Source: Myxococcales bacterium (GTDB lineage: Bacteria; Myxococcota; Myxococcia; Myxococcales; UBA5297). From it: a stretch of DNA of 64,000 bases. The translations under genes were made by a program, and so were the position numbers. The stretch is taken from contig JASGHK010000008.1 of the NCBI GenBank assembly GCA_049841135.1, forward strand, positions 19,272 to 83,271. Reading direction: 5' to 3'. Below, one piece after another: positions 6,898-45,960 of the stretch. A model generated the notes under the pieces. That model had not been told where the DNA came from, searched no databases, and saw nothing but the letters and a program-made list of their open reading frames with translations. Numbering within the stretch: position 1 is the first letter of the stretch; the number at the start of each line of letters is the position of its first letter.

Positions 6898-7680
6898 ATG
6901 AGCATCCCCCTTTTCGCGACGGCCTCCGCCTCTGCCCTCCTCCTGCTCCTCGCGGCTGCCCCGCCGCCGCAGTCCGGTCCGGAGTTTCGCCAGGACCAGA
7001 TGAAGTACGGCCGGGTGAAGCAGGCGGCGGCGAACAAGACCAAAGTCCTCAAGGCGCTCTTCGCGGAGAAGAAGGTCGCCTGGCCGCCCGCGGGGATCCT
7101 CATTCGCAGCTTCAAGGAGGACGCCACCCTCGAGCTGTGGGCGAAGGCCAAGGACGGCAGCTTCGTCCTGGTGAAGGAGTACCCGGTCTGCGCCGGCTCG
7201 GGCGACGTCGGGCCCAAGCGCCGCGAAGGCGATCTGCAGGTGCCCGAGGGCTTCTACGAGGTCAACCACTTCAATCCGTGGAGCCAGTACCACCTCGCCC
7301 TCGGCGTCAGCTACCCGAACTCCAGCGACCGCATCCTCGGCGGCGGCGGCAAGGAGGGCCCCCTGGGCGGACAGATCTACATTCATGGCAAGTGCTGCAC
7401 CATCGGCTGCATCCCCATCCAGGACGACAACATCGAGGAGGTCTACCTGGCCGCCCTCGAGTCGCGCGCCGCCACCGGCGACCCCGTCCGCATCCACGTC
7501 TTCCCCACCAAGTTGACCGACGAGGCGATGAAGCGCCTCACCCAGGACCACGCCGCCGACGAGGCCAGGCTCGCGTTCTGGGCGAACCTCAAGCAGGGCT
7601 GGGACCTCTTCGAGAAAGACCACCGCCTGCCCAAGGTCAGCGTGGACGCCAAGGGGCGCTACCAGTTCTCGGCGAAGTGA
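6898..7680 (+). CDS. L,D-transpeptidase (YkuD-family) catalytic-domain protein, secreted
   Basis: Signal peptide present. IYIHGKCCTIGCIPI resembles the His/Cys active-site block of L,D-transpeptidases. Confidence 0.65.
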   Translation: MSIPLFATASASALLLLLAAAPPPQSGPEFRQDQMKYGRVKQAAANKTKVLKALFAEKKVAWPPAGILIRSFKEDATLELWAKAKDGSFVLVKEYPVCAGSGDVGPKRREGDLQVPEGFYEVNHFNPWSQYHLALGVSYPNSSDRILGGGGKEGPLGGQIYIHGKCCTIGCIPIQDDNIEEVYLAALESRAATGDPVRIHVFPTKLTDEAMKRLTQDHAADEARLAFWANLKQGWDLFEKDHRLPKVSVDAKGRYQFSAK

Positions 7681-7760
7681 TGTCCCCCCGCTGAGGCACC
7701 GCCCGTCGCGGTAGCATGGCCGCGCTGCAACCGAAGACGACGATCGACGGAGGAGCTTCG

Positions 7761-8621
7761 ATGCTCGAGGCGCGACTGCTGGCACTGCTGACCCTGCCCC
7801 TGGCCGCGGCCTGCGCGGGAGTCCAGGTTTCAGGCCCCTCGGCCGAGCAGGAGCGCGCCGCGCTCGTTCAGGAAGCCCAGGCGGGCCTCTCGACGCTCCA
7901 GGCGATCGCCTCGGCGCTTCCGCAAGAGCTCGCTCCGCTGCGCGACCGGGCGGACCGGGGCGAGGCGAGCGTCGCGCTCCAGCACACGCTGATGAGCCTC
8001 GTCGACCGCTGCGTGGGCCTCGCCTCCGAGGCCGAGGCAGTCCTGCTGCCGCTGCGGGAGCTTCACCCGCCGCCCGCAGAGCTCGATCGTCTGGAGGTGG
8101 AGACCGACCGGACCGCAAGCAGCGCCCGCACGGCCGCGGTCCAGGCGCTGGATTTCCTCGACGCCGTGTCCGTCCGCGCCTGCAGGCTCGCTACCTCCGC
8201 TCCGGCGCTTCGAGAGGACCTCACGGCGCCGGCGGACTCGGCTAGCCTTCAGGAACAGCTCGCGGGCGCGGCGCACGAAGCGGCCAGGTCACTTGTCCGC
8301 ACGCTCGCCGGCCGCGCGGTGGCTCGGCTGGTCGTCGTGCCCGCCGCGGTGAGCCTCGAGGGGCCATCGCGGGCGGATTCTGCCGCCATCCACGGTTGGC
8401 AGTTCTCGCGCCTGCTCGCCGCCGCGCTCCGCGACGCGGGGCTTCCGGCCACCTTCAGCGCCGAGCCCACCAGCGCCCAGCAGACCGCCGCGCTGGTCTC
8501 CGCCACGCTGGCGCTGCACAGCTCGGATTCGGTCTTCACCCTCTCGGTCCTCGGCCTCCGCGACCACACCCAGCTCGCCGCCACCAGCGGCGTCTACCCG
8601 CCCTCCAAGCCCACCTTCTAG
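7761..8621 (+). CDS. hypothetical lipoprotein (paralog of the next gene)
   Basis: Internal Met MLEARLLALLTLPLAAAC gives a lipobox. The C-terminal block R..VVVPAA..L.G...FSRLLAAALRDAG.PATFS is shared with the next gene. Confidence 0.5.
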   Translation: MLEARLLALLTLPLAAACAGVQVSGPSAEQERAALVQEAQAGLSTLQAIASALPQELAPLRDRADRGEASVALQHTLMSLVDRCVGLASEAEAVLLPLRELHPPPAELDRLEVETDRTASSARTAAVQALDFLDAVSVRACRLATSAPALREDLTAPADSASLQEQLAGAAHEAARSLVRTLAGRAVARLVVVPAAVSLEGPSRADSAAIHGWQFSRLLAAALRDAGLPATFSAEPTSAQQTAALVSATLALHSSDSVFTLSVLGLRDHTQLAATSGVYPPSKPTF

Positions 8622-8653
8622 ATCAGCCGTTCTTCCTCCCAACCGAACTCTCT

Positions 8654-9586
8654 ATGCGCTCCTTCACCCTCGCCCTCCTGTTGGCCCTCGCGGCCGCAAC
8701 CGCCTGCGCCGCCGCCAAGCCTGCGCCTCCGCAGAAGACCGACTTCGACTGGTTCGACGACGAGCTCCAGCTGGGAGACATCCAGCGCGGGCGGGTCGAG
8801 CGCCTCACGCTTCGCGCGCGCGCTGGCGAATCGGAGCTGGCGCTCGCGGAGGCCCTCTTGCGAGCCGGCCAGGACTGCCAGGCACGAGCCGAAGACGTCG
8901 TCAGCCGCGCCGAGGAGCTGCGCACGAACCATCCCCGCGATGCGCGAGCGCCCGAGGCCTTCCGGCGGGCAGAGGAGGCCGCGACCAAACTGCGCCAGTC
9001 GGCGAGCGAGGCCGCTGCTGCGGCCGACGCCGTCTACCTCGCGAACTCCGCCAAGGAAGCCGAGCAGGCCACGCGCGCGGAGGAGCCCGCTCCGTCGCCA
9101 CCGCCTCCTCCGGCTCCGGCCCCCGAACCTGCGCCGGCGTCCCCCGCGCCGACGGGAGACAGCGACTTGCTCAACGCCGCGGCGGAACAGGCCGGCAGCG
9201 CGCTGGCGGCCAAGCTCGCCCGGCACAAGGCCCGGTCGGTGGTGGTCACGCCCGCAGCCACCTTGATTGGCGACGAGATGCCCAAGCTGGCGCTCGCCTA
9301 CAAGAACAAGGGCGGGCAGGCGGACGTGTATGGACGCGCCTTCGCGCGCGGGCTCGCCGCGGCGCTGGCCAAGGCAGGCTTCAAGGCCACTTTCTCCAGC
9401 GACGTCCGCGGCCAGCTGGCGTCCGCGCCGGGCAAGCCGCAAGCGGACGTGTCGGAGGTGCGCATCCTCGTCTACGGCGCGCTGGCGACCCTGCCGAACG
9501 AGTTCGCGGCGTGGGAGTTGCGCGCGGTGGACCTCAACAACGACGGAATCCTTGGCGAGACCCAGGGCGTTCGCCGCGCGCGCTGA
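8654..9586 (+). CDS. hypothetical lipoprotein with Pro-rich linker (paralog of the previous gene)
   Basis: MRSFTLALLLALAAATAC lipobox at ATG 8654. Conserved C-terminal block ...VVVTPAATLIG...FARGLAAALAKAGFKATFS. Confidence 0.5.
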   Translation: MRSFTLALLLALAAATACAAAKPAPPQKTDFDWFDDELQLGDIQRGRVERLTLRARAGESELALAEALLRAGQDCQARAEDVVSRAEELRTNHPRDARAPEAFRRAEEAATKLRQSASEAAAAADAVYLANSAKEAEQATRAEEPAPSPPPPPAPAPEPAPASPAPTGDSDLLNAAAEQAGSALAAKLARHKARSVVVTPAATLIGDEMPKLALAYKNKGGQADVYGRAFARGLAAALAKAGFKATFSSDVRGQLASAPGKPQADVSEVRILVYGALATLPNEFAAWELRAVDLNNDGILGETQGVRRAR

Positions 9587-9720
9587 GCCCCGTCACCTCG
9601 AGCCCGTCGAGGGGCCAGAGCCCGGCGAGGGGCCAGAGCTTGTCGAGGGCCGGAGTCTGGTCTTTGCTTCACCGTCGGCCAGGCCGGCGCCGACCGTCCA
9701 CGGACAGCAGGGAGGGTGCA

Positions 9721-11304
9721 ATGCGTCTGAGCCTCGTGGGAGCCGACTTCGAGGAGAACCTCGGCCTGGGGATGATCGCCGCGACCGCGCAGCAGGCGGG
9801 CCACTCGGTCGTCGTCCACCCCTTCAACGACGTGCGGCAGGCCCGTGAGGTCGCCCGGCGCATCGCCTCGGCCCGGCCCGAGCTGGTCGGGCTGAGCCTG
9901 CAGTTCCAGCACCGCGGTCACGAGTTCGTGGCCCTGGCGCGGGCGCTGCGCGAGGCGGGCTACCGCGGGCACCTGACCTGCGGCGGCATGCTCGCCTCGG
10001 CGGCCTGGCAGCAGGTCCTGGCCGAGAAGGCGTTCGACTCGGTCGTCCTCTACGAAGGCGAGCAGACGATCGTCGAGCTGGCCGGTGCGCTGGTCGCGGG
10101 GCGGCCGCTGGCGGAGGTCCCGGGCCTGGCGCTGCGCGACGAGCGGGGCGAGGCCGTGCGCACCGCCGACCGGGAGCGGCCGAGCGACCTCGACGCGCTG
10201 CCCTTCCCCACCCGCTACCGGCCGCCGACCCGGCACCTGGGCATCCCCTTCCTGCCCGTCCTCGGCTCGCGGGGCTGCTGGGGGCGCTGCACCTTCTGCT
10301 CCATCAGCTCCTTCCACCTCGAGGCGAGCGCGCACGGCGGCGGGCAGCTCTTCCGCCGGCGCAGCCCGGAGAACATCGCGCAGGAGATGGCGCTGCTCGC
10401 GGGCGACGGCCCTGCCCTCTTCTGCTTCCACGACGACAACTTCCTCCTGCCGAACCCCAAGCACTCGCTGAAGCGCGTGCAGGAGATCCGCGCGGCTTTC
10501 GACGAGCTCGCCCCTGGCCCCCTGGGCATCATCGGCAAGACGCGCCCGGAGTGCCTGACGGCCGAGCTGGCGAAGGAGCTGCGCGAGCTGGGCGTGGTGC
10601 GGCTCTACGTCGGCGTCGAGAACACCTCCGAGACCGGCGCCGAGCACCTGGCGCGCGGCACCCAGACCCGGCACGTGCACTCGGCGCTGGCCGCCTGCCG
10701 CGAGGCGGGCATCTTCGCCTGTTACAACCTGCTCGTCTTCGAGCCCAAGACGACGCTCGCCGACGTGAAACAGAACGTCGCCTTCATGCGCGAGCCTGCC
10801 GCGCCGAGGCCTACACCGGTACCCCGCTGCACCGCTCGCGTGCCTCGCGCGACGCGCTCACCGGCAGCTGGCTGGGCTGGAACTACCGGCTCGAGGACGA
10901 CCGGGCCGAGCTGCTCTTCCGCATCTGCGCGGCCGCCTTCCGCGAGCGCAACTTCGGCGCCGACGGCGTCGCCAACCGGTCGATGGGCCTGGGCTACTGC
11001 GGCCGGATCCTCGAGCACTTCTACCCGGAGGCGTCCGCCGAGGCGGCGAAGCTCTCGCGCCGCGCCGCGGACCTGACCCGGAACATCGTCCTGGAGACCG
11101 CGAGCTTCCTGGAGGAGGCCATCGCGCTCGCTGAGACGACGCCGCTCGCCGAGCGCGACGCCATCGAGCGGCAGACGGCGCTGCTGGGGCTGCGCATCGC
11201 ACAGGCGGACCAGCCCTGGCACGCGGCGATGGACGAGTTCCACGCCGACGCCGACGCGCTCGTCGCCTCACTGCAGGCGAGCCGGCCGAAGCCCGCGTCG
11301 TGGA
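9721..11304 (+). CDS. B12-binding radical SAM protein; apparent -1 frameshift near 10792-10800; stop not found before the next gene
   Basis: N-terminal cobalamin-binding domain (LVGLSLQF...). CxxxCxxC motif LGSRGCWGRCTFCSI. The reading frame changes after ...NVAFMRE and continues HARACRAEAYTGTPL... in frame 0. That frame runs without a stop into the lipoprotein-like ORF at 11305. Confidence 0.65.
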
Positions 11305-11972
11305 TGCGGGTGGCGCGGCGGGTGGCGCTGGGCGCGACCTTGGTGCTCGGCGGCACGTCCTCCTGCGAGTGCTACAGCGTCGACATGGTCCCCTACGATC
11401 CCGACGCGATGGTGGTCGACCCGGTGCCCGGCGACGCTGGGGCGACCGACGCGATGGTCGCCGACCCGCTCCCGCCCGACGCCGGCACCTCCGACGCGAT
11501 GGTTGCCGATCCGCTCCCGCCCGACGCCGGCGCCTCCGATGCGCTGGTCGCCGACCCGCTCCCGCCCGACGCTGGCAGCCCAGATGCGGGCATGGTGGCC
11601 GATCCGGCCCCGGAGGACGCAGGAATGGCGGTCGATCCACTCCCCGAGGACGGCGGCCACGCCGCCCGGGAACCGGCCGGCCAGTGGCGCGACTCCGCCA
11701 CCTACGCCTTGCGCTCGAACGACCTTCCGCTCTTCTGCCCGCCTGCGGTGCGGCTGTGCGCCGTGCGCGACGGCGAGACGGTCCGCGTCACCGTCCAGGG
11801 AGCGCCCGGCCCGCTCAGCACGCGCTGCGAGACCTCGGGCATCGTCGTCGGCGAGGGCCGGGAGCTGACCTGGACTCCGGCGTCGGCGGACGACTCGCTG
11901 CGCGTCGCCGTTCGTTCCGCGGGCGGCGTGGCGGTGGTCTCGCTGCGGGCCTGCGAGGTCAAAGCGAGCTGA
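11305..11972 (+). CDS. lipoprotein-like protein with 5 tandem 13-aa repeats (DAMVADPLPPDAG); possibly fused to the radical SAM gene
   Basis: MRVARRVALGATLVLGGTSSC signal/lipobox. Five 39-bp DNA repeats at 11392-11640. C-terminal Cys-containing domain. It is in-frame with the upstream gene and has no intervening stop. Confidence 0.4.
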
Positions 11973-19228: not shown

Positions 19229-21331
19229 CTACTGCAATGCCTTCTCCGTCGCCCTCAGCAGCGCCTCCGCGCCCACCGGCGCTCCCGTGGCGTTCTCCAT
19301 CCACAGGTCGGGCACCACCGTGCCGAACTTCGCCATCCGCTCGAACTCCACGCCCAGCGCCGGCACCGTCTTCATCTTCTCTTCGATTTGGAAGGCGATG
19401 AGGTGGCCCATCGGGTAGTCGGGCGTGTACATCGGGTAGGCGATGAGGTGCGAGTAGATGCCGAGCAGGACCGTGTCCTTGCCGCCCAGCACCGGCGCGT
19501 AGAACTGGTTCCAGACGTCCTTGGAGATCTGCACCACCGCTTCGCGCATCTGCGTCGCGGTCGCGGTCGGGTGGTCGTAGAGCCAGTGCCAGGTCCGCAC
19601 GTCGACCAGCGCCACGCCGGCGATCTCCCAGGTCATCCAGAAGCTGTTGAGCGCCGCCAGCTTCTCGGCCTCGGGGTCCGGCTTGGCCAGCCCCAGCAGC
19701 TCCAGGTCGCGCGCCTGGAAGACGAAGGCGAAGGCCTCGGTGAAGGCGGTGTTGGGCACCCCCTGCAGCAGCGTGTGGTCCACCTCGTAGAGCGAGATGA
19801 CCTGCTCGACGTTGTGGCCCAGCTCGTGGATGGCGATGTTGTAGCCCTTGTAGTCCATCCCGTCCTTGCCGATGCGCGTGCGCAGCCGCGGGAAGTCGCC
19901 GCGCCGCGTCGCCTGCATGGCGTGGCCGGAGCCGCGCGCCGGGTCGACTCGAATATGGTCGGCCAGGAACTGTGCCTTCTCCTTGGGGAAGCCCAGGTCA
20001 GTGAGGATGCGCGGGAGGTCCGCGGCGAACGCCTTGGCGTCCGGGTACTTCTTCTTGGTGATGGCGTCGAGCTCGGCCTCGCTGAACTTCCCACGCGGCT
20101 GGAAGCCGTTGTACCAGAGGTCGAACGGCTCGAGCTTGCGGCCGAGCCGCTTCTCGATGCGCGCGGCGACCTTGCCGGCGAGCGGCGAGGAGGTCACCTG
20201 CGTGAGCATCCCCACCACCCGCTCCTCGGGGATCTCGCGGCCCAGGTCGAAGCGCCGGGCGATGACCGTCGGCGAGACCGGGCAGTATGGGTCCGCCGCC
20301 TTGTTGGCCTGGAACTGCGCCAGCCACTTCGCATAGCGCCGGTCGGGCTCGGGCGTGGCCTCGGCCTTGGGCGCCGCCGTCTTGGGCGCGCCGTCCTCCA
20401 CCTCCGCCGCCGGCGCGAGCGCGACGGTGTTCGCCACCGGGTCCCAGTCGACCCGCGGATCGTTCACCACCGCCGCGGGGATGGTCTGGGTCACGATGCG
20501 CTGCATGACCTGGGCGAGCAGGCGCTGCTTGGCGAGGCCGCTCTTGGCGTCGGCGTAGTCGGCCTTGAGCTGGTCGCGCAGGTTCCAGTGCGAGAGCAGC
20601 CGCAGGCCCTTGGGGAAGAGCCGCTCGCCGGCGGGGTTCACGAGGTGGTGCGCCCAGACGTTGTACTCGGCGATGTAGAGGTCGGCCTCGGCGCCGACCC
20701 GGGAGATCTGCTGCTGCACCTCGCCGGGGATGCGGAAGGCGAAGCCGGCGGTCAGCCGCGCCTCGGCCCACTGGCGGCGCGTCCAGTCCTTGCCCGCCAG
20801 CCGCTCCTTGAGCGTGGTGAGCGGGAAGTTGAGGAGGACGTGGAAGGCGATCTTCGAGTCGAAGAGGTCGTCGGTCAGGTGCGCCGCCGGGTCGAGCGCG
20901 GAGAGCATCGGGTCCACGGAGAGCAGCGGGCCCTCGTCGACGTCGGTGGCCCAGCGCAGCGAGCGGCCGATCTCGTTGAAGGCGCCGCCGACCTGCTCGA
21001 AGGTCGCCTCCAGGCGGTCGAGCGTCGCGTCGAGCTGCTGGGGGTCGGCGATGAAGTTCTCCTGCACGAACGCCTTGAAGTCGCCGTCCTTCTCGCGCCA
21101 CAGCGCCGCCACCTGCTCGACGCCGCGCTCGATGCGCACGCGCTGCGCCTCGCCGTGCTTGGCGACCAGGGCCGCCTTGAGCTCTGCGCACTCCTTCTTG
21201 AGATCCATCGGTCCCTCCACTGCCTGGGCTTGCGGCTTGGCGTCGGACTTCACGCTGGGATTAGTCGAGCAGCAGGCGCCGAGCGAGAGCGCGCACGCCG
21301 AGAGGACGGCCATTCGTCGGGTCGAAGTCAT
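19229..21331 (-). CDS. zinc metallopeptidase-like lipoprotein (HEXXH: IAIHELGHNVEQ)
   Basis: MAVLSACALSLGACC lipobox. A single HELGH motif in a roughly 700 aa protein. The peptidase family is not assigned. Confidence 0.6.
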   Translation of the reverse strand: MTSTRRMAVLSACALSLGACCSTNPSVKSDAKPQAQAVEGPMDLKKECAELKAALVAKHGEAQRVRIERGVEQVAALWREKDGDFKAFVQENFIADPQQLDATLDRLEATFEQVGGAFNEIGRSLRWATDVDEGPLLSVDPMLSALDPAAHLTDDLFDSKIAFHVLLNFPLTTLKERLAGKDWTRRQWAEARLTAGFAFRIPGEVQQQISRVGAEADLYIAEYNVWAHHLVNPAGERLFPKGLRLLSHWNLRDQLKADYADAKSGLAKQRLLAQVMQRIVTQTIPAAVVNDPRVDWDPVANTVALAPAAEVEDGAPKTAAPKAEATPEPDRRYAKWLAQFQANKAADPYCPVSPTVIARRFDLGREIPEERVVGMLTQVTSSPLAGKVAARIEKRLGRKLEPFDLWYNGFQPRGKFSEAELDAITKKKYPDAKAFAADLPRILTDLGFPKEKAQFLADHIRVDPARGSGHAMQATRRGDFPRLRTRIGKDGMDYKGYNIAIHELGHNVEQVISLYEVDHTLLQGVPNTAFTEAFAFVFQARDLELLGLAKPDPEAEKLAALNSFWMTWEIAGVALVDVRTWHWLYDHPTATATQMREAVVQISKDVWNQFYAPVLGGKDTVLLGIYSHLIAYPMYTPDYPMGHLIAFQIEEKMKTVPALGVEFERMAKFGTVVPDLWMENATGAPVGAEALLRATEKALQ

Positions 21332-34115: not shown

Positions 34116-34187
34116 CCCGCATCCGTCGAGGAGCCCCACCGAGAACTGAAGTGCCGCCCGGGGCGCGCTGCTCTACAGTGCGCAGCC

Positions 34188-37100
34188 ATGGAAAACCTCC
34201 TCGACCACCTCCGGCACCACGGCCTCGGCGACGCCTTCCCTCCTGACGCCCTCGACAGCGGCGCCGCCGCCGTCGGCCAGGGCCGGGTCAGCCGCCCGCG
34301 GGTCACGGGCCCCCGCGCCGCCGCCTACGTGGCCGACGACCGCCTGGGCCGCTGCCGAGCCGAGCTTCGCGTGGGCCCGGACGGCCTCGCCGGCGAGTGC
34401 AGCTGCGGCCGGCTCCACTGCCACCACCTCGCCGCGCTCTCGCTGATGCTCACCGGCGGGGCCCTCCCGGGAGCCAACGCGGACGACGGCAGCCGCGGCG
34501 CGGCCACGGACCCCAAGCACGGGGAGCGGCAGCGCCGGGCGGAGCGCGCGCGCTCGGGGCTCTTCGAAGTGGCGCCTCTCGACCGCGACGCGGCCCCCTA
34601 CGGCCGCTACCAGGTCAGCTCTCCTTCAGGCCGCACCTACCTCGTGACGCTGCGCGCGTTCGACCAGGCCCACAACAGCTGCACCTGCCAGGACTTCGCG
34701 CTCAACCTCCTGGGCACCTGCAAGCACGTCGAGGCGGTGATCGCCTCGCTCGAGTCCCGGCGCTCGACCCGCAAGCTGCTCCTGGCGGCGCGAGAGAACG
34801 GGCCCCGCCGCAGCTACCTCTACCTGGCCCATGAGCCGACGCAGCAGGTGCGCCTGCGCAGCCGGGGCCGCTCGCTCGCCGCCGCCCGCTTCGCGCGCCG
34901 CTGGTTCGACGGCGACGGGGAGCCCAAGGTCGCCTCGCCGGACGACTGGCCCGAGGTGCTGGCCGAGGCCCGCCAGGCGCAGGTCGAGGTGCCCGACGAG
35001 GTCGACCGCCACGTCTCGCGCTCGCTGCAGCAGGCCGCGCAGCAGCGGCGAGTCACCGCGCTGGAGGCGCGGGCCCGCCGCGACGGCGCCGGGCAGCCGG
35101 GCTTCGCGGGCAAGCTCTACCCGTACCAGGTCGAGGGGACCGCCTTCCTGCTCAGCCGCGGCCGCGCGCTGCTCGCCGACGACATGGGACTCGGCAAGAC
35201 CGCGCAGGCCATCGCCGCCATGTCGCGCCTCTTCTGGTCCAAGGAGATCGCCCGGGCGCTGGTGGTCTGCCCCGCCTCGCTCAAGCACCAGTGGGCCCAG
35301 GAGATCTCCCGCTTCTGCGCCGTGCCCGGCGTGGGCACCACGGTCATCGGCGGCTCGCGCGAGCAGCGCCTGACCGCCTACGCCCAGGCCCGGGAGATCG
35401 TGGTGACGAGCTACGAGCTGATGCGCGCCGACGAGGAGGAGATCGGCAAGCTCGCCCCGGACCTGCTCGTGCTCGACGAGGCCCAGCGCATCAAGAACTG
35501 GCGCACCCGCACCTCGGACGTCGTCAAGCGCTTCCCGACACGGCTGGCCTACGTGCTCACCGGTACGCCGCTCGAGAACCGGCTCGACGACCTCTACAGC
35601 CTGATGCAGGTCGTGGACCCCCACGTCTTCGGGCCGCTGTGGCGCTTCAACCAGGACTTCACCTCGCTCGACGAGCGCGGGCGGGTGCAGGGCTACCGCA
35701 ACCTGATCGAGCTGCGCGCCCGCATCGCGCCGCACTTCCTGCGGCGCCGGAAGGAGGAGGTGCTGCTGCAGCTCCCCGAGCGCCTGGTCAGCCGGCTCAC
35801 CGTGCCGCTCGACGAGGAGCAGCGCGCCATCCACGACGAGGCCGAGTCGGTGGTGGCGCGCATCCTGGCCGTCCTCAGGCGTCGGCCGCTCTCGCCCATC
35901 GAGGAGAAGCGGCTGATGGCCGCCTTCCAGCGCATGCGCATGTCCTGCGACGCCGCGCGGCTGGTGGACGACGAGGCGCACGCCAAGGGCTCGGCCAAGC
36001 TCGACGAGCTGGAGCGGCTCTTGGAGGAGATTCTGCCTGCAGGGCGGCCACAAGGTGGTGGTCTTCAGCGAGTGGGAGAAGATGCAGGCCCTGGCGGCCC
36101 GCGTCGCCACGCGCCTGAAGGTGGGCCACGTGCGGCTGCACGGCGGGGTCCCCACCGAGCAGCGCGGCGCGCTCATCGAGCGCTTCCGCAACGACCCGGC
36201 CTGCCAGGTCTTCTTCTCCACCGACGCCGGCGGCGTGGGCCTCAACCTGCAGGCGGCCGATCACCTGATCAACCTCGACCTGCCCTGGAACCCGGCGGTG
36301 CTCGCCCAGCGCATCGGCCGCGTCCACCGGCTGGGCCAGAAGAGCACCGTGAACGTGGTGCTGCTGGTCGCCGAGGAGAGCTTCGAGAGCCGCATGGAGC
36401 TGACCCTGGAGGCCAAGCGCGGGCTCTTCGAGGCGACCGTCGGCGCGGACACCGAGACTGACTCGATGGAGCGCTCGACGCTGGCGCGGCGCATCGCCAC
36501 GCTGCTCAACGAGAGCTTCGCTGCGACGACCGCCAAGCTGCCCGTCGAGCCCGCCGAGCCGACCGCCGCAATCGCCGAGGCGGCTCCCGGCACGCCGCCC
36601 GACCCGGTCGCCGAGGCGCGCAAGCGGCTGGGCGAGCAGACGCTCGACAGGCTGATGCGGACGCGGGACGGAAGGCTCGTGGGCATCGTCGCCGAGGGTG
36701 CGGCGCTGCCGCCCCCGGAGGCGGCCGGCCCTGTGATGCTGCTGCCGGCGCAGGCGGCGACCGCGCTGGGGGCCTTCGGCGAGGCCTCCCCGCTCTCCGG
36801 CGCGGAGGTGCTCTTCGAGCGCGCCACCGCCCCGGCGCTCTCCCCCGAGCACGAGCGTCGCTCCGGCCAGCTCGCCGCCGCGCAGCGCAAGCTCGCCGGC
36901 GCCCGCGCGCTGGCGGCTCAGGATTTGGGCGGCGAGGCGCTCGGCCTGCTGCGCGATGGCCTCGCGCTCCTCTGCCGTGCAGCCGCGGCGACCGATCCCG
37001 GAGAGGCCACGCCGGCGCTGCTGGCGACGGTCTTCGGGGAGCTGGTGCCGAGCTCGGCGCTGACCGCGTCGGAGGCGGCGGCCTTGGCCCGCGCCGGCGA

Positions 37101-37233
37101 GCTGGCCCGAGCCTTCGGCTCCAGCCCGGCACGGCCTCCGGCTCCGCTCGTGGAGGATCTCGCCAAGGAAGCCAGCGCGCTCCACGCGCGGCTGAGCCAG
37201 AGCCTGGTGGCCGGCACGCAAGCGGTGGCCTGA
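34188..37233 (+). CDS. SWIM zinc-finger SNF2-family helicase; apparent +1 frameshift near 36037
   Basis: SWIM CxC...CxH (ECSCGRLHCHH, SCTCQDF...CKH). SNF2 motifs DDMGLGKT, DEAQRIKN and TGTPLENR. After ...LEEIL the frame shifts to ...QGGHKVVVFSEWEKM with helicase-C QRIGRVHRLGQ. Removing one C restores EEILLQGGHKVVVF. Confidence 0.8.
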
Positions 37234-38472: not shown

Positions 38473-41400
38473 CTACTGCACCCGGATGGTGAAGGACCCG
38501 GTCAGGGTCGAGGAGTAGGAGTCCACGTAGAGGTAGTACGTGGTGCCCGCCGCGCCGTTGATGGTGAGCGTCTCGGCGCCGCTGTACGAGGCATCCGAAG
38601 CGTTGACGCAGGTCGAGCCGGTGCCGCCGCAGGTGGTGGTGGTGTACCAGACGGCCACGTCCCAGGAGGCCGGCGTCACCGTCACCGTGAAGTTGCCGGC
38701 GGCGGTCGGCGTGTAGCTGTAGACGACCTCCTTACCCGGCGCGTTGTAGTCGCCCATGCCCGCGTAGCACGTGCTCGACAGGCTCGAGCCGTAGTCCGCG
38801 ACCGCCAGCGCGGTGTCTCCGGACACCGTGGTGCCCAGCGTGAGCGGGATGGCGTTGGCGCCGTCGGTGCCGCAGGCGTCGTTGGCCGGCGGGTCCATGG
38901 TCACGAGATCCAGCTTGTACGCACCGGCGGAGCTCGAGTACCCGTCGACCCACACGTAGTAGGTGGTGTTGGCCGTCGGGGCGGTGAGCGTCACGGAGGC
39001 GATGGTGCCCGCCGCGTTGCTTGTGCCGGCGCTGGAGTTGTACGTGCAGGCGACCTGCGCGGCGGCGGCAGTGTCCGAGCAGGCCGAGCGCACGTAGACC
39101 AGCGGCTTGAGCGAGCCGGTGTTCGACGCGGTCAGGGTCACCTTCACCGGCTTCGGCGTCGCGCCGGAGTTGAAGGAGTAGACGACGTCCCCGCCCGTCG
39201 TGCTCGACGTGCAGCCGCTGGTGGGCAGCGTGGTGGCGTCGGCGCCCAGCGTGTTCCCCGTCACGGAGATGGGGCCGGCGGTGACGTCGCCCAGGTCCTG
39301 GGCGCTCGTGCACGCGTCGTTGGCCGGGGCGTCGACCGGGATCAGGTCCAGCTTGTAGCCACCGATCGCCGAGCTGTAGCCGTCCACCCACACGTAGTAC
39401 GGCGTGTTGGCGGTCATCCCGGTCACGGGGATGCCCACCGTCCCGCCTGCGGTGCTCGAGTAGTCGCAGGCGACCTGGGCGGTGGCGGTCTCGTCGGCGC
39501 AGGCCTTGCGGACATACACCAGCGGCTTGAAGTCCTGCGTGGTGCTGCTGAGCAGGACCTGCACGCCCTTCGGCGTCGCTCCGGAGTTGAAGGAGTAGAC
39601 GACGTCCGCGCCGGTGGTGCTCGAGGTGCAGCTGGTGGTCGGCAGCGTCGAGGCGTTGGCGAGGTAGGTGTACCCCGACGCCGTCAGCGGCCCGGCGCTC
39701 ACGTCGCCCAGGTCCTGGGCGGTGGCGCACACGTCGTTGGTGGGCGGCAGGATTGGCGCCCCCGTCTTCAGCTCCAGCGTGAACTTGCCGTAGCTGCTGG
39801 CCAGGCCGTCGACGACCACGAAGTACTGGCCGGCGGCGAGGTTGTAGGCGGTGGCGGCGACCGCCACCGTGCTGCTGCTCTTGGCGCACGCCTTCTCGTC
39901 CGCCGAAGCCGGACTGGCGCAGTTGCTGCGCAGGTAGACCGCCGGCTGCCAGCCCGTCGCCGACGCGTCTGGCGTCACCTTGGCCACCACGGAGGCCGCC
40001 GCGGAGAGGCTGAAGGTGTAGACCACGTCGCTGCCGGTCATGGTCACGCCGGTGCCGCCGCAGGTGCCGCTGTAGTCGTCGAAGGCGGCCGAGGTGTCCC
40101 CAATCACCGTGGCCTGTCCCGAGCCGGCGGTCAGCGCCGCGGTCAGGTCGTGGACACCGCCGGAGGTGACCGCCGAGCAGAGGTCGTTGGCGGGCGGAGC
40201 CGGGGGATCGGCCAGGGTCACGGTGAGGGTGAACGGCCCCTTGGAGGTGCTGTACCCGTCGGCCCAGAGGTAGTAGGTGCCCGCGGGGAGGCGCCGGTAG
40301 CTGAAGGCCGCGGGGGTTGCCCCGCTGCTCTCCTTGCAGGCCAGCTCGTCGGCGGCGGCGACGGTGGTGCACTGGCCCTTGCGCAGGTAGACCACCGCGG
40401 TGTTGGTGGTGGTGGCGAAGGCCATGCTCACCTGCAGGTCCTTCACGGCGCTGGTCGTCAGCTCGTAGACGAGGTCGTTGCCCAGGCCGGTCCCGCAGCT
40501 GCCGACGCTGCCGCCGTTGGTCTTGGCGCTGGTGGTGTCGCCGTTGAGGACCACCGTGCCGTTGCCGGCGGCGTCAAACCCGGCGATGGCGCTGGGGTTG
40601 CTGCAGTCCTCGTTGGTGATCGTCCCCACCGCGGCGCCGGTGACCTCCAGCTTGAAGGCGCCGGTGGTGCCGCCGGTGCCGTCGACCAGCACGAAGTAGG
40701 TGCCGGCCGGCAGGTACTCGGCGGTGGCGGTGACCGCGGTCCCGGCGGTGGTGGTGGAGGCGCAGGCGCGCTCGCCGTTGCCGGTGCCCGGGCAGCTGGC
40801 GCGGATGTAGACGCCGGGGGCCAGGGTGGTCGGCGCCACCGGGGTCACCTTGGCGGTCACCTTCTGCGGCGCGGCCAGGGTGAAGGAGTAGACGAGGTCC
40901 GCCCCGGTCATCGCCGCGCAGGCGCCGGTGAGGTCGTCGGTGGCGTACCAGGTCTCGGCCTCGGCGGTGGCGGTGGTGCCGTCGACCGCGCCCAGGTCGA
41001 AGGTCCCGGAGGCGCCGGCGCAGACGTCGTTGGCCGGAGCCGCCGGGCTGTCGGTGACGGTCACCTCCAGCGCCACCGGCCCCCGGTCCGTGCTGGAGAA
41101 GGCGTCGACGTAGACGTAGTAGCGGCCGGCGGGCTGCTTGCGCGCGGTGGCCGTGGCGGTGGTGAGGCCCGTGCCGGCCAGGGCGCAGGCCACCTCGTTG
41201 GCGTTGTCCGTCACTCCGCTGTTGCAGGCCTTGCGGATGTAGACGTTGGGGCGCCAGGTGCCGCTGGCCAGGGTGACCTTGGCCGCGAGGTCCTTGTAGC
41301 CGCCGGCCGGCAGGTCCACGGCGTAGACCAGAATCCGGACCCGAGGAGGTGTTGCAGGAGCCGTTGGTGTCGCCGACGGCCAAGGCGGTGTCGGCGTTGA

Positions 41401-44400
41401 CCGTCACCGTCCCGTTGCCGTCGGGGCCGAAGCCGGTGAGGGCCTTGGCCATGGCGCAGGTCTCGGGCAGCGTGTCCTGCGCGCTCAGATCGAGCTTGAA
41501 GGCGCCGGAGGTGGCGGCGTTGCCGTCCACCACGAGGAAGTAGGTGCCGGCAGGCAGGGCCGCGGCGATGGCCGTGGCGGTGCTCGGGGTGCCCGAGCCG
41601 CTGGCGCAGGCGCGCTCCTCGGCGGCCAGGCCCGGGCAGGCGCCGCGCAGGTAGACGTTGGGCACCAGGGTGGAGCCGGTGTCGGCCGCCACCTTGGCCA
41701 CCACGAGCTGGGTCTTGGTGGTGGTGAACTGGAAGACCACGTCACCGCCGGTGCCGGTGCCGCAGCTGCCCACGGAGTCGCTGGCCGCGCCGACCGTGGT
41801 CGCCGAGACCGTCGGAACGGCCACGCCGTCCACGGTGCCCAGGTCCACGGCCGCGGTGCACTGGTCGTTGGCCGGCACGGGCGGCAGGGCCGCCGAGTCG
41901 GTCACCGTGACCACGAGGCTGAAGGGACCGGAGTGCGAGGTGCTGTAGCCGTCGACCCAGATGAAGTAGCGGCCGGCGGGCAGCCGGGTCGCCGCGGCCG
42001 TGACGTTGTAGACGCCCGTGCCGGCAACCGCGCAGGCCAGCTGGTCCGCCGCCGCCGCCGAGGCGCAGCTCTTGCGGATGTAGACGTTGGGCCGGTAGCT
42101 GCCGGTGAAGGTCATCTTCGCGGAGACGTCCTTGGTCTTGCCCGCCGGAACGTCCAGCGCGTAGACGAGGTCGTAGCCCGAGGCGGAATTGCAGGTGCCG
42201 TCGCCCGAGCCGGTGGCGGTCGCGGTGGTGTCGTTGACGGTCACCGCGCCATTGCCCTCGGCGTCGAAGCCGGTCAGCGCCAGCGGCGAGGCGCAGTCGT
42301 CGCCCGTGCGGCCCACGGCCGAGCCGGTGACGGTGAGGCTGAACTTGCCCGCGGTCTTGGAGCGGCCGTCGACGATCACGTAGTAGGTCCCGGCCGGGAG
42401 CGTCTGCAGGGTGGCCGTCGCCGCGCCGCCGCCCGTGGTGGCCGTGGCGCAGCCGAGGTCCTCGGCGGTGGTGCCGGGGCAGGCGGTCCGGACGTACACC
42501 GAGGGGTAGTACGTCGTCTGGCCGCTGTCCGGGGTGACCTTGGCCACCACCTTCTGCGCGCTGTTGAGGGTGAAGGTGTAGACCAGGTCGCCGCCGTCGT
42601 GCGGGTAGGTCGCCGTGGCGCAGCCGCCCGCGGTGTCGTTGAGGGCGTTGGTCGTGTCCTGAGCAGCCTGGGTCAGCGTCACGCCGTCGGCGATGCCCAG
42701 GTCGATGGCGCCGGCGCACGCGTCGTTCGCGGGCGGCGGGACGATCACCGTGTCGGCCAGCGTGACCGTGAGCGTGAAGGCCCCCTTGTGCGAGGTGCTG
42801 TACGAGTCGGCGTACACGTAGTAGCGGCCCGCCGGCAGCTTCTTGGGCGAGACGGTGATGGTGTTGACGCCGGAGGCCGCAGAGCCGCAGCCGACCTCGT
42901 TGGCCGAGTCGGTCACGACCGCCGTGCAGGCCTTGCGGACGTACAGGACGGGCCGGTTGGTGGTGGAGGTGAAGGCCATCACCGCCGTGACGTCCTTGGT
43001 CATCCCCGCCGGGACGTCGAAGGAGTAGACGAGGTCGGGGCCGGTGGCGCTCTCGCACGAGCCGTCGGTCTCGGTGGTGTTGCTGGTGGTGTCGCCGTTG
43101 GCGGTGGCGGTGCCGTTGCCGCTGGCGTCGAAGCCGGTCAGGGGAAGGGCTGCCATGCAGGTCTCGCCCGCGGTGAGCGTGACGGCGGTCAGGTCGAGCT
43201 TGAAGGCGCCGGCGGTGCCGGCGAAGCCGTCGACCACGGCGTAGTAGGTCCCGGCCGGCAGGACCGCCGAGGTGGTGGCGGTGCCGCCGACGGCGGTGGC
43301 GGCCTTGCAGGAGGCCTCATCGGCGGCGAGCGGGCTGGCGCACGCCTTTCGCAGGTAGACCACCGGGCGGAAGGTCGAAGTGGTGGTGCTCAGCGCCGCG
43401 GTGACGGTGGCCGGCGCGGTGAGGGTGAAGGCGTAGACGAAGTCGGGGCTCGAGTCGCCGCCGCAGCTGCCGACCGAGTCGTTGGCCGCGCCGACGAGCG
43501 TGCCGCTGACGCTGGCCGCACCGGCGGTGAAGGCCAGCTCGAGCGCGGGCGAGCAGGTGTCGGCATTGCCGCAGGCGCTGCCGGCGCCGCACACGCCGCT
43601 CTTGCAGTCGCTGGCGGCCAGGCACTCGACGCAGGCCTGGGACGGGTTGCACAGGTGCTTGGCCCCGGCCGTGCAGTCGGCGTCCGCCAGGCACTCCACG
43701 CAGGTCTGGGCGGTGTTGCACTTGGGCGCCCCGGCGGCGGTGCAGTGGGCGTCGGTGACGCAGTTCACGCAGCCGTGGGCGGCCACGTCGCAGACCGGCT
43801 TGCCGGCGACGGTGGCGCAGCCGCTGTCGGAATCGCAGCCGCTCTTGCAGGTCGACACCACCGTGTCGCAGTACTCGAGCGCGCCGCAGTCGGCGGTCGC
43901 CAGACACTGGACGCAGCTCTTGCTGGGGTTGTCGCAGCGGGTGAGCCCGGGCGTCGTGCAGTCGGTGTCGGCGAGGCAGCCCACGCAGGTGTGGACCGGC
44001 ACTTCGCACACCGGCAGGGCGGCGGTGCAGCCGGCGTTGTCGTCGCAGCCGGCGTGGCAGGTCTTGGCCGCCGTGTCGCACCAGCTGTCCGCGGCGCAGT
44101 CGGCGGTGCTCAGGCAGGCGACGCAGGCCTTGGCCGCGGTGTCGCACTTCTTGTCGGCGCCGGTGCAGTCGAGGTCGGCGAGGCAGCCCACGCAGGTGTG
44201 GGTCGGGATCTCGCAGACGGGCTTGCCGGTCACCGTGGCGCAGCCGGCGTTGGCGTCGCAGCCCGGCTGGCAGGCCTTGGCCGCCGTGTCACACCAGTTG
44301 CCCGCGCCGCAGTCGGAGGTGGCCAGGCACCCCACGCAGCTGTTGGTGGCCGAGTCGCACTTCTTCGCCGTCCCGGTGCACTGCGTGTCGTTGAGGCAGG

Positions 44401-45436
44401 CGACGCAGGCGTGGGCCGCGACGTCGCACACCGGCTTGCCGCTCACGCCGGCGCAGTCGGCGCTCTCGCCGCACCCGGGCTGGCAGAGGTGGACCGCGGT
44501 GTCGCAGTAGTGGCCCGCGGCGCAGTCGGCGGTGGCCAGGCACGCCACGCAGACCTTGTTGGCGGGGTCGCACTTCTTGTCGGCGCCGGTGCAGTTGGCG
44601 TCGGACAGGCAGGTGACGCAGGTGCCGGCGGCGGTGTCGCACAGCGGCTTGCCCGCCACGTTGGCGCAGTCGGCGTCGCCGGCGCAGCCCGCCTTGCAGC
44701 GGTGGTCGGTGCTGTCGCAGTAGGCGCCCTGGCCGCAGTCGGCCTTGGCCAGGCACTCGACGCAGACCTTGGCGGCCGCGTTGCACTTGGGCGTCGTCCC
44801 GCCGCAGTCGCCGTCGGCGAGGCAGGCCACGCAGGCGTGGGCCGCGGTGTCACAGACCGGCTTGCCGGCGACACCGGCACAGTCGTCGCTCTCGTTGCAG
44901 CCCGGCTTGCACGCCCTGGCGTCGCAGTAGTTGCCCGCGGCGCAGTCGCTGGTCGCAAGGCACGCCACGCAGGCCTTGGCGTCGGGGTCGCAGCGCTTGG
45001 TGTCGCCGGTGCAGTCGCCGTCGAGCAGGCAGCCCACGCAGGTGTTGGTGGTGGTGTCGCACAGCGGCTTGCCGGTGACCGTGGCGCAGCCGGCGTTGTC
45101 CTGGCAGCCCGCCTTGCAGTGGAAGCTCGAGTCGCAGAAGGTGCCGTCGCCGCAGGTGGCGCACGGGGTTCCGCACCCGTTGTCGCCGCACTCCTTGCCG
45201 AAGCACTGGGGAACGCAGGTGTCGGTGCAGGTGTTGTTGGTGGTGTCGCAGGTCTGGTTGGCGCCGCAGCACGTCGTGCCGCAGGGCTTGGCGCAGCCGG
45301 CGTCGGGTTTCACCGCGGCGTCGGGTTTCACCGAAGCGTCCTGCGCGACGTTGGCGTCGGGGGTGAGTTCGATCTCTTCGGGACAACCAGCGAGGAGCAA
45401 GGCGGCCAGGAGGCCGATGCGAGTCAGCAGTTTCAT
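38473..45436 (-). CDS. giant (about 2,320 aa) cell-surface lipoprotein: about 12 Cys-rich 45-aa repeats followed by about 14 repeated beta-sandwich (PPC-like) domains; apparent +1 frameshift near 41331
   Basis: GGAGG RBS. MKLLTRIGLLAALLLAGC lipobox at 45436. Repeats of ...CD.A...CV.CL...DC......CD......C..GC. The repeated module is roughly 145 aa. After ...NTSSGPD the frame shifts and continues LVYAVDLPAGGYKDL. An extra T in gatt explains the shift. Confidence 0.75.
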
Positions 45437-45960
45437 TCGTCCCCTCCAGAGGGAGACAGGTTTTAGGTTCGCGCCAGCATACGGCACTGTCGTTCCAGCA
45501 CAAACCCCAGCCGCGAACATCGGCCTGCGAGACCGGATCGGCGGCGTGGACGGGCGCCCCGAGTGGATCCCCGGCGAAGGGCTGGAAGTGGAGCTCACCT
45601 ATACGGTGACGGTCCGCCCGCGACCGCCATCACGACCCGAATGGGGAAGCAGAACGGGCGTTGCGCCCGCGAGCCGGTGGTGGTCTCACCGGCCGCCGGT
45701 ACCGCTCGCGCAACGCGGCGAAGCCGGCCCCTACGGATGAGCGTGGATGCGTTCAGCCGCACGGTTGGCCGTCGCCGCGATGGGCAGCAGCGGGTTGACG
45801 CTGTGCTGCCGTCGACGATGACTAGCCAGCCAAAGCGCCACCGACGGCATGGCGCCCATGGCCTACGGCAAACCGTCCGCCTGGGCGACCACGACGTGAA
45901 CCTCACCGCGCTCGTCCTTAAGAGCCGCTCGAAGCCGAAGCTCGCGGGCGTGGCATCGGC

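Follow-up and report, generated by a model that had tools for sequence, protein, structure and literature searches.

A conserved Myxococcota family that joins a cobalamin-dependent radical SAM enzyme to a putatively exported, lipoprotein-like tail

Organization of the Locus

A gene on the forward strand at positions 9721-11972 of a 64,000-nucleotide (nt) stretch of the Myxococcales bacterium assembly GCA_049841135.1 (contig JASGHK010000008.1, contig positions 19,272 to 83,271; hereafter the window, whose G+C content is 70.9%) encodes a B12-binding radical S-adenosylmethionine (SAM) enzyme that leads into a lipoprotein-like signal, a set of repeats and a C-terminal domain. A preliminary description of this DNA, made from the letters alone, had noted this succession, and the present analysis bears it out. 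Comparison with homologues strongly supports a genuine fusion of the enzyme and the tail in a single polypeptide, and the features of the family suggest that the tail is exported.

The frame opened by the ATG at 9721 encodes the B12-binding and Radical_SAM domains within its first 358 codons. A Shine-Dalgarno-like GGGAGGG (9710-9716) is read in the sequence 4 nt 5' of this ATG, and the start matches the N-termini of the aligned homologues (MRxxLVGADFEENLG). The first part of the enzyme, in frame 1 (9721-10794), comprises a B12-binding Rossmann domain (approximately 9754-10080) and a radical SAM barrel (approximately 10267-10773); as the preliminary description had anticipated, both Pfam models, PF02310 (E=2.8e-15) and PF04055 (E=5e-17), are matched in 9721-10797. 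The CX3CX2C motif that would bind the [4Fe-4S] cluster and SAM, CWGRCTFC, lies at 10276-10299, and its cysteines C186, C190 and C193 are invariant in alignments of 18 and 53 members. Homology in frame 1 ends with VKQNVAFMRE at 10794 and resumes with CRAEAYTGTPL from 10797 in frame 3; between them, protein and DNA alignments reveal a lesion at 10795-10796, in which "CC" stands in place of 24 nt encoding QATHPVNF. The closest relative accordingly yields two tblastn high-scoring segment pairs, one in frame 1 (9721-10836) and one in frame 3 (10797-11966).

The second part of the enzyme (frame 3, 10797-11303) comprises the conserved CRAEAYTGTPL...FRERNF region and a long helical hairpin, according to the alignment and the AlphaFold2 (AF2) model of P0001, the protein encoded at the nearest relative locus (L086). 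The frame-3 open reading frame (ORF), 10551-11972, has no stop codon ahead of the in-frame ATG at 11304, which begins the sequence MRVARRVALGATLVLGGTSSC (11304-11366). On the basis of the conserved Cys column, of the residue at position -1 and of the VALGASLA core, this region is described as an internal signal-peptide-like or signal-anchor-like segment with a lipobox-like Cys, MRVARRVALGATLVLGGTSS-C. It is followed by an acidic, Pro-rich, disordered stalk (11367-11663; Tandem Repeats Finder (TRF), regular expression and AF2 of P0001) and by a conserved C-terminal module (11664-11969), in which a linear motif precedes an immunoglobulin (Ig)/PKD-like β-sandwich (approximately 11751-11948). The stop codon occupies 11970-11972.

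Conservation of the Fused Architecture

A search with the stitched 749-residue protein returned 553 matches. Nearly all of the best 120 are 730-840 residues long and are aligned at 99-100% coverage and 48-78% identity; the sole exception among them is P0019, with 451 residues. The protein matches and the ORFs at 80 loci of GTDB species representatives were pooled into a non-redundant set of 167 sequences. Of these, 161 have the C-terminal domain, and the six exceptions are truncated by a contig end or a frameshift. The order of the parts is identical in the alignments of 18 and 53 full-length members, that is, the enzyme, a basic stretch, the hydrophobic segment (VALGASLA), the Cys, the repeats (three to eight VVDPxPxDAG-like units per aligned member) and the C-terminal module. 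The full length of the homologues and the near-universal C-terminal domain strongly support a genuine fusion, which was one of the three options offered in the preliminary description.

The other two options, that the enzyme and a lipoprotein are separate genes merged by a lost stop codon or that the tail arises by internal initiation at 11304, are together very improbable. Taken alone, the window copy favors them, with an in-frame Met before the signal-like sequence. However, the frame is continuous across more than 160 homologues, the Met that starts the "lipoprotein" of the window is kept in only 12 of 168 aligned rows, and no Shine-Dalgarno-like sequence is seen upstream of the ATG at 11304. 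No two-gene orthologue, with the enzyme and a separate tail, was found in the data searched, the orthologues being encoded in one continuous frame. Because no two-gene version exists in these data and the Met column is so rarely occupied, both options are unsupported.

Stand-alone tail genes were also considered and rejected, since every short match is a fragment arising from a contig end or a frameshift. In a word-indexed database, the tail profile retrieved only proteins of 54-198 residues with starts inside the repeats (MVVDP...). Two short tail proteins on megabase-scale contigs lie just 3' of radical SAM pieces in another frame, and two whose start coincides exactly with the signal-like segment begin close to a contig end, at distances of 32 and 45 nt. 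When 1.84 billion representatives were searched exhaustively with HMMER, only 157 proteins were recovered, and in all of them the C-terminal domain is at the C-terminal end. The mid-length matches start in the helical region of the radical SAM part or in the linker and hold partial Radical_SAM/B12 domains or nothing; no other N-terminal enzyme partner of the tail domain was found in this search.

The more than 160 non-redundant homologues, of approximately 730-840 residues, all come from metagenome-assembled genomes (MAGs) of Myxococcota. The 80 GTDB-representative loci are assigned to Sandaracinaceae, Polyangiaceae, Polyangiales and Nannocystaceae, and one is labelled Bradymonadia. Three or four full-fusion paralogues occur on different contigs of single MAGs, namely SJ883 (L018, L048, L067 and L072), M_MetaBat.197 (L016, L036 and L068) and HKST-UBA02 (L029, L061 and L080); judged from these copies, the family is expanded within genomes.

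Enzyme Class and Predicted Fold

The AF2 model of P0001, computed from the 53-sequence alignment, has a mean predicted local distance difference test (pLDDT) score of 83. Residues 1-530 form the enzyme, with a terminal helical hairpin (443-480 and 486-528), and are mostly predicted at a pLDDT above 90, the two helices of the hairpin included. The hydrophobic segment (residues 535-548) is modeled as a helix at low confidence, residues 549-651 are disordered (pLDDT below 40), and residues 652-738 form a seven-strand β-sandwich at high confidence.

Foldseek comparison of the model with the PDB retrieves OxsB, MgmA, TsrM, AprD4, CysS and TokK, with E-values from 1e-14 to 1e-19 at 14-20% identity, and a sequence search of the PDB detects OxsB (E=1e-12) and AprD4 alone. 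These six enzymes share the N-terminal B12 Rossmann domain, the CX3CX2C partial TIM barrel and a helical C-terminal extension with the family, whereas they are without the hydrophobic segment, the lipobox-like Cys, the Pro-rich stalk and the Ig-like domain. As judged from its motifs and predicted fold, the region of approximately 530 N-terminal residues is a cobalamin-dependent (class B) radical SAM enzyme, which comprises the B12-binding Rossmann domain, the CX3CX2C barrel and the helical hairpin and carries no N-terminal signal. No NCBIfam equivalog is matched at its cut-off; the best models (ApyD, HpnR, HpnJ and BchE) score 55-90 bits against 480-750. The same 55-90 bits are the best that the named class B subfamilies reach against cut-offs of 250-750, including the methyl-coenzyme M reductase (MCR) Gln methyltransferase and the C-methyltransferase of ribosomally synthesized and post-translationally modified peptides (RiPPs), TIGR03975. 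Radical SAM enzymes need cytoplasmic cofactors and, to our knowledge, are soluble cytoplasmic proteins.

Signal-Like Segment, Stalk and C-Terminal Module

Of 168 aligned rows, 167 have a Cys in the column that follows the hydrophobic segment, and 160 of 164 have G, A or S at position -1. Across the family, a basic stretch precedes the hydrophobic segment (median net charge +4 over 15 residues), and the Cys is preceded by an uncharged run with a median of 17 residues. The preliminary description had called this region a canonical signal peptide with a lipobox. The basic n-region, the uncharged h-region and the Cys are indeed present throughout the family, but the site is internal, at residues ~528-548 of a protein of approximately 750 residues, and positions -3 and -2 are relaxed. 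Twin-arginine export was rejected, the RR of the window copy not being conserved in the family.

After the Cys, the linker of the family is approximately 100 residues long (57-191), with a net charge of -16 and 17% Pro. In the window, TRF detects a 45-nt unit in 3.9 copies (11401-11576, score 238), and a regular expression for the protein core [MV][VA]DPxPxD[AG]G finds four regular 15-residue repeats and two degenerate copies in 11406-11657. The tandem repeats of the preliminary description are thus real, but its five units of 13 residues become four regular and two degenerate copies with a period of 15 residues (a 13-residue core and a 2-residue spacer). At least two DPxPxD[AGS]G motifs are present in 124 of 152 members, and some paralogues have unrelated Pro- or Gly-rich linkers; L074, L076 and several fragments have poly-Pro or Gly-rich linkers where other members have DAG-type repeats, but retain the Cys as well as the linear motif and the Ig-like domain. 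Relative to L086, the window copy has gained 57 nt of repeat sequence, all in frame. Since some paralogues exchange the repeats for other linkers, the repeats appear to be a stalk of variable length rather than an obligatory substrate. By our own analogy, the spacer resembles TonB-type periplasmic spacers in being Pro-rich and long enough to cross the periplasm, whereas it differs from them in being acidic and DAG-rich.

The linear motif ahead of the sandwich, (D/E)(Q/H)W.D..P....R..DLPL..PP, has an invariant W, R and PP and is predicted at low or medium pLDDT in the P0001 model. The consensus of the whole C-terminal module reads IDQWRD..PRR..R..DLPL..PP, followed by ...RL.A.R.G..VRV...RWEA.G.VEGEG.EV.W.P...D.LRVAVRS.GGVAVVSLRA. 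The domain itself, of approximately 85 residues, is predicted to be a seven-strand Ig/PKD-like β-sandwich. No Pfam or NCBIfam model matches the tail, the Ig and PKD models included, and the weakest profile matches of the domain are PKD/Big_9 repeat proteins. The C-terminal domain had been described as Cys-containing; the domain is confirmed, but its Cys residues are not conserved in the family, in which the Cys at the lipobox position alone is kept. Several Cys residues absent from the family consensus (FCPP, RLCAV, TRCET and RACEV) have been acquired by the Ig-like domain of the window copy and of its closest relatives; at one of these sites, the Cys takes the place of the Trp in RWEA, which is otherwise nearly invariant.

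Proposed Topology and Alternative Explanations

We consider it likely, with a probability of about 70%, that the gene represents a conserved Myxococcota family, found in Polyangiales-type MAGs, whose product combines a cytoplasmic enzyme with an exported tail; the Cys is the probable site of lipidation of this tail and a possible site of its cleavage. The radical SAM enzyme would stay in the cytoplasm, the hydrophobic segment would act as an internal export signal in an N-in/C-out orientation, and the stalk and the Ig-like domain would lie outside the cytoplasmic membrane. The orientation is suggested by the net charge of +4 before and -16 after the hydrophobic segment, and an extracytoplasmic tail by the Ig/PKD-like fold and its weak profile links to PKD/Big_9 proteins. 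Lgt and signal peptidase II (LspA) require a Cys preceded by a small residue. Because the small-residue-Cys pair is practically invariant, is not needed by a plain anchor and is accompanied by no second conserved Cys, the tail is likely to be exported and lipidated at this residue: Lgt would add a diacylglyceryl group to the Cys, and signal peptidase II may then cleave before it, which would leave a membrane-proximal enzyme and a tethered lipoprotein. Bacterial lipoproteins that are substrates of Lgt and LspA have in common with the family a basic n-region, an Ala/Gly/Leu-rich h-region, a small residue before the Cys, a disordered linker and a small globular domain, and the stalk may be likened to the long disordered tether of LpoB-type lipoproteins.

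Several points weigh against this reading. We infer export, lipidation and cleavage from the syntax of the sequence. Classical lipoprotein signals are N-terminal, whereas the signal of the family lies near residue 530, behind a folded cofactor enzyme; we know of no precedent for a bacterial lipoprotein signal behind a 530-residue domain, and none was found in the literature searched. The classical L-[AS] is often missing at positions -3 and -2: A, V, T and S predominate at the former, and the latter is variable (E, D, Q and N included). Two N-terminal lipoprotein-like ORFs elsewhere in the window use equally relaxed boxes (LAAAC and AATAC). The hydropathy is moderate, with a Kyte-Doolittle mean over 15 residues of ~1.45-1.9, nearer to a signal-peptide h-region than to a robust transmembrane helix, and the AF2 helix at this site has low confidence. 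In addition, the h-region (V/L)ALGASLA (equivalent to window positions 11322-11345) is conserved above the level of usual signal peptides and has small-xxx-small spacing, which hints at a retained, possibly dimerizing transmembrane helix. A specific functional assignment was sought and rejected, as NCBIfam and the PDB sequence search give similarity at the superfamily level only and no function is assignable. Finally, no conserved neighbors were detected: three annotated loci differ from each other, and no flanking ORF family occurs at more than 9 of ~83 loci.

A possible but doubtful alternative is an uncleaved bitopic (type II) membrane enzyme, in which a permanent, dimerizing transmembrane helix would bring the catalytic domain to a substrate near the membrane, for instance a lipid. 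The role of the stalk and the Ig-like domain would then be merely to localize or regulate the catalytic domain, and the Cys would have another role, for example in a disulfide. The conserved VALGASLA core with its spacing and the long helical hairpin directly upstream of the hydrophobic segment are consistent with such an enzyme, as is the presence of HpnR, HpnJ, BchE and "lipid biosynthesis B12/rSAM" models among the best family matches, all of them below threshold. By our analogy, PknB-type Ser/Thr kinases and ToxR/CadC likewise combine a cytoplasmic domain, one hydrophobic segment and an extracytoplasmic module in a single-pass protein, but they have no sequence relationship to the family, whose catalytic domain is a radical SAM enzyme. 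However, the hydrophobicity and length of the segment are marginal for a stable transmembrane helix, a plain anchor needs no invariant Cys after G, A or S, and the tail offers no second conserved Cys for a disulfide.

It is unlikely, although arguable on several grounds, that the protein is an enzyme-substrate fusion, whose radical SAM domain modifies the protein's own tail within the cytoplasm, either in cis or between the two partners of a dimer. The signal would then export the tail and the lipobox release it, so that the enzyme would serve as a giant "leader"; the conserved disordered linear motif and the repeats are the candidate target sites. In the sequences searched, neither the tail domain nor this radical SAM clade occurs without the other, each of the several paralogues in a MAG keeps its own tail, and with no conserved partner genes the gene looks self-contained. 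The low or medium pLDDT of the linear motif is frequent in binding and modification sites, and the nearest structural and profile relatives include the protein- or peptide-modifying class B enzymes MgmA, TsrM, ApyD and TIGR03975. AtsB (anSME), which acts on sulfatases, and QhpD, which acts on QhpC, are cytoplasmic radical SAM enzymes that modify proteins before export, and the borosin OphMA is an enzyme fused to its own substrate. These are conceptual precedents only: AtsB and QhpD are of the SPASM type rather than the B12 type and are encoded apart from their substrates, and OphMA is a SAM N-methyltransferase rather than a radical SAM enzyme. Against such a fusion, the tail motif has low confidence in the full-length AF2 model, no RiPP radical SAM model comes near its cut-off, and a cofactor enzyme of 530 residues spent in a single turnover would be costly. 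The repeats, moreover, are replaceable by other linkers, and a RiPP-type neighborhood of precursor, protease and transporter genes is not conserved at the loci compared, which together with the RiPP scores weakens the suggestion in the preliminary description that the repeats are a RiPP-style substrate. Modification in cis of a part of the tail other than the repeats is possible, and self-modification before export is conceivable because enzyme and tail strictly occur together, partner genes are lacking and the disordered W/R/PP motif is conserved. Carried furthest, the protein would be a self-contained maturation-and-export device, whose tail is self-modified (for example by C-methylation in the linear motif), exported, lipidated by Lgt and cut by LspA, which we regard as quite improbable. 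One gene would then give rise to a radical-modified surface or periplasmic lipoprotein and a spent, membrane-associated enzyme, and two firsts would be combined in the family: a lipoprotein signal peptide at an internal position, and a radical SAM enzyme joined in one chain to the exported substrate on which it acts.

While the enzyme superfamily is well known, the fusion architecture, a large and strictly conserved family that joins a radical SAM enzyme to an exported, apparently lipid-anchored module, is absent from Pfam, NCBIfam and the literature searched, in which nothing was found on a radical SAM-lipoprotein-type fusion of this kind. If the internal lipobox is used as proposed for the exported and lipidated tail, the rules of lipoprotein biogenesis would extend to signals behind a folded domain of 530 residues, and the product would be a natural "polyprotein" spanning the inner membrane. 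Should the enzyme modify the tail to which it is fused, a new logic for the post-translational modification of envelope proteins would follow.

The Frame Lesion in the Window Copy

The change of frame in the window copy had been described as a single -1 junction. The frame change is confirmed, but it results from a 22-nt deletion relative to L086 rather than from the slip of a single base. The "CC" at 10795-10796 replaces the 24 nt of the eight codons for QATHPVNF, and eight residues are present between FMRE and CRAE in all relatives (QATHPVNF in P0001; HAxHPVNF in the family consensus), with the P, N and F conserved at 95% or more. In the DNA alignment with L086, which has 84% nucleotide identity over the gene, the lesion is one clean 22-nt gap at 10796 (AGGCGACGCACCCGGTCAACTT in L086); the remaining gaps (3, 42 and 15 nt) are all multiples of 3 and all lie in the repeat region.

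As assembled, the window copy is non-functional, to judge from this loss of conserved residues and frame. Apart from the lost P, N and F, only two deviations are found in 153 highly conserved columns, both of which are shared with P0001, and the ratio of nonsynonymous to synonymous substitution rates (dN/dS) against L086 is 0.34 on the 5' side of the lesion and 0.41 on the 3' side. Long-term pseudogenization was rejected on these grounds. Since no other decay is seen, the lesion is either very recent or not real, that is, a very recent pseudogene or an error of assembly or consensus. The odds that the break is such an artifact and that the real gene is intact are a little short of even. The contig is 1.65 Mb long and comes from a MAG, a split between frames also affects a second gene of the window (an SNF2 helicase), related genes on other very long contigs of MAGs show similar breaks, and the remainder of the gene is without decay; in our experience, however, a clean 22-nt deletion is atypical of consensus errors.

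The homologous genes at L004 (3272-5582) and L005 (3082-5360), both on megabase-scale MAG contigs, are called as two or three pieces in different frames. Because of such calls, the public annotation of the family is often fragmented into "radical SAM/B12-binding" and "hypothetical protein" entries. P0019 (MGC4121974.1, 451 residues), recorded as "MAG: radical SAM protein [Myxococcales bacterium]", corresponds exactly to the ORF 9721-11076 of the window and reads on into the wrong frame, which illustrates how frameshifted assemblies split genes of this family into a "radical SAM protein" and a "hypothetical protein". With the window copy broken, it is the family that gives the finding its value.

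Other Features of the Window

The SNF2-family helicase lies on the forward strand at 34116-37233, split over two frames, with the SNF2-rel_dom match in the frame of 34116-36461 and the Helicase_C match in that of 35917-37233; the G+C content at third codon positions (GC3) switches phase at approximately 35990-36060 in this gene. A frameshift scan of the window based on GC3 phase was noisy, and the SNF2 case alone was confirmed. On the reverse strand, two long overlapping stop-free stretches in different frames (40574-45598 and 38473-41403) have weak matches to PPC and GBD_T9SS_assoc, and the GC3 phase switches near 41400; the region 38473-45598 may be one giant secreted-protein gene with a further frameshift.

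Directly 5' of the radical SAM gene, two forward-strand ORFs, 7716-8621 and 8396-9586, carry classical N-terminal lipoprotein signals (…LPLAAAC and …LAAATAC). Neither has a Pfam match, and no mutual similarity between them is detectable (BLAST E=3.1). A YkuD L,D-transpeptidase gene (6898-7680) lies 5' of these two ORFs. In the intergenic region just 5' of the radical SAM start, an 18-nt tandem repeat, GAGCCCGTCGAGGGGCCA, is present in 2.8 copies with 87% matches (9600-9649).

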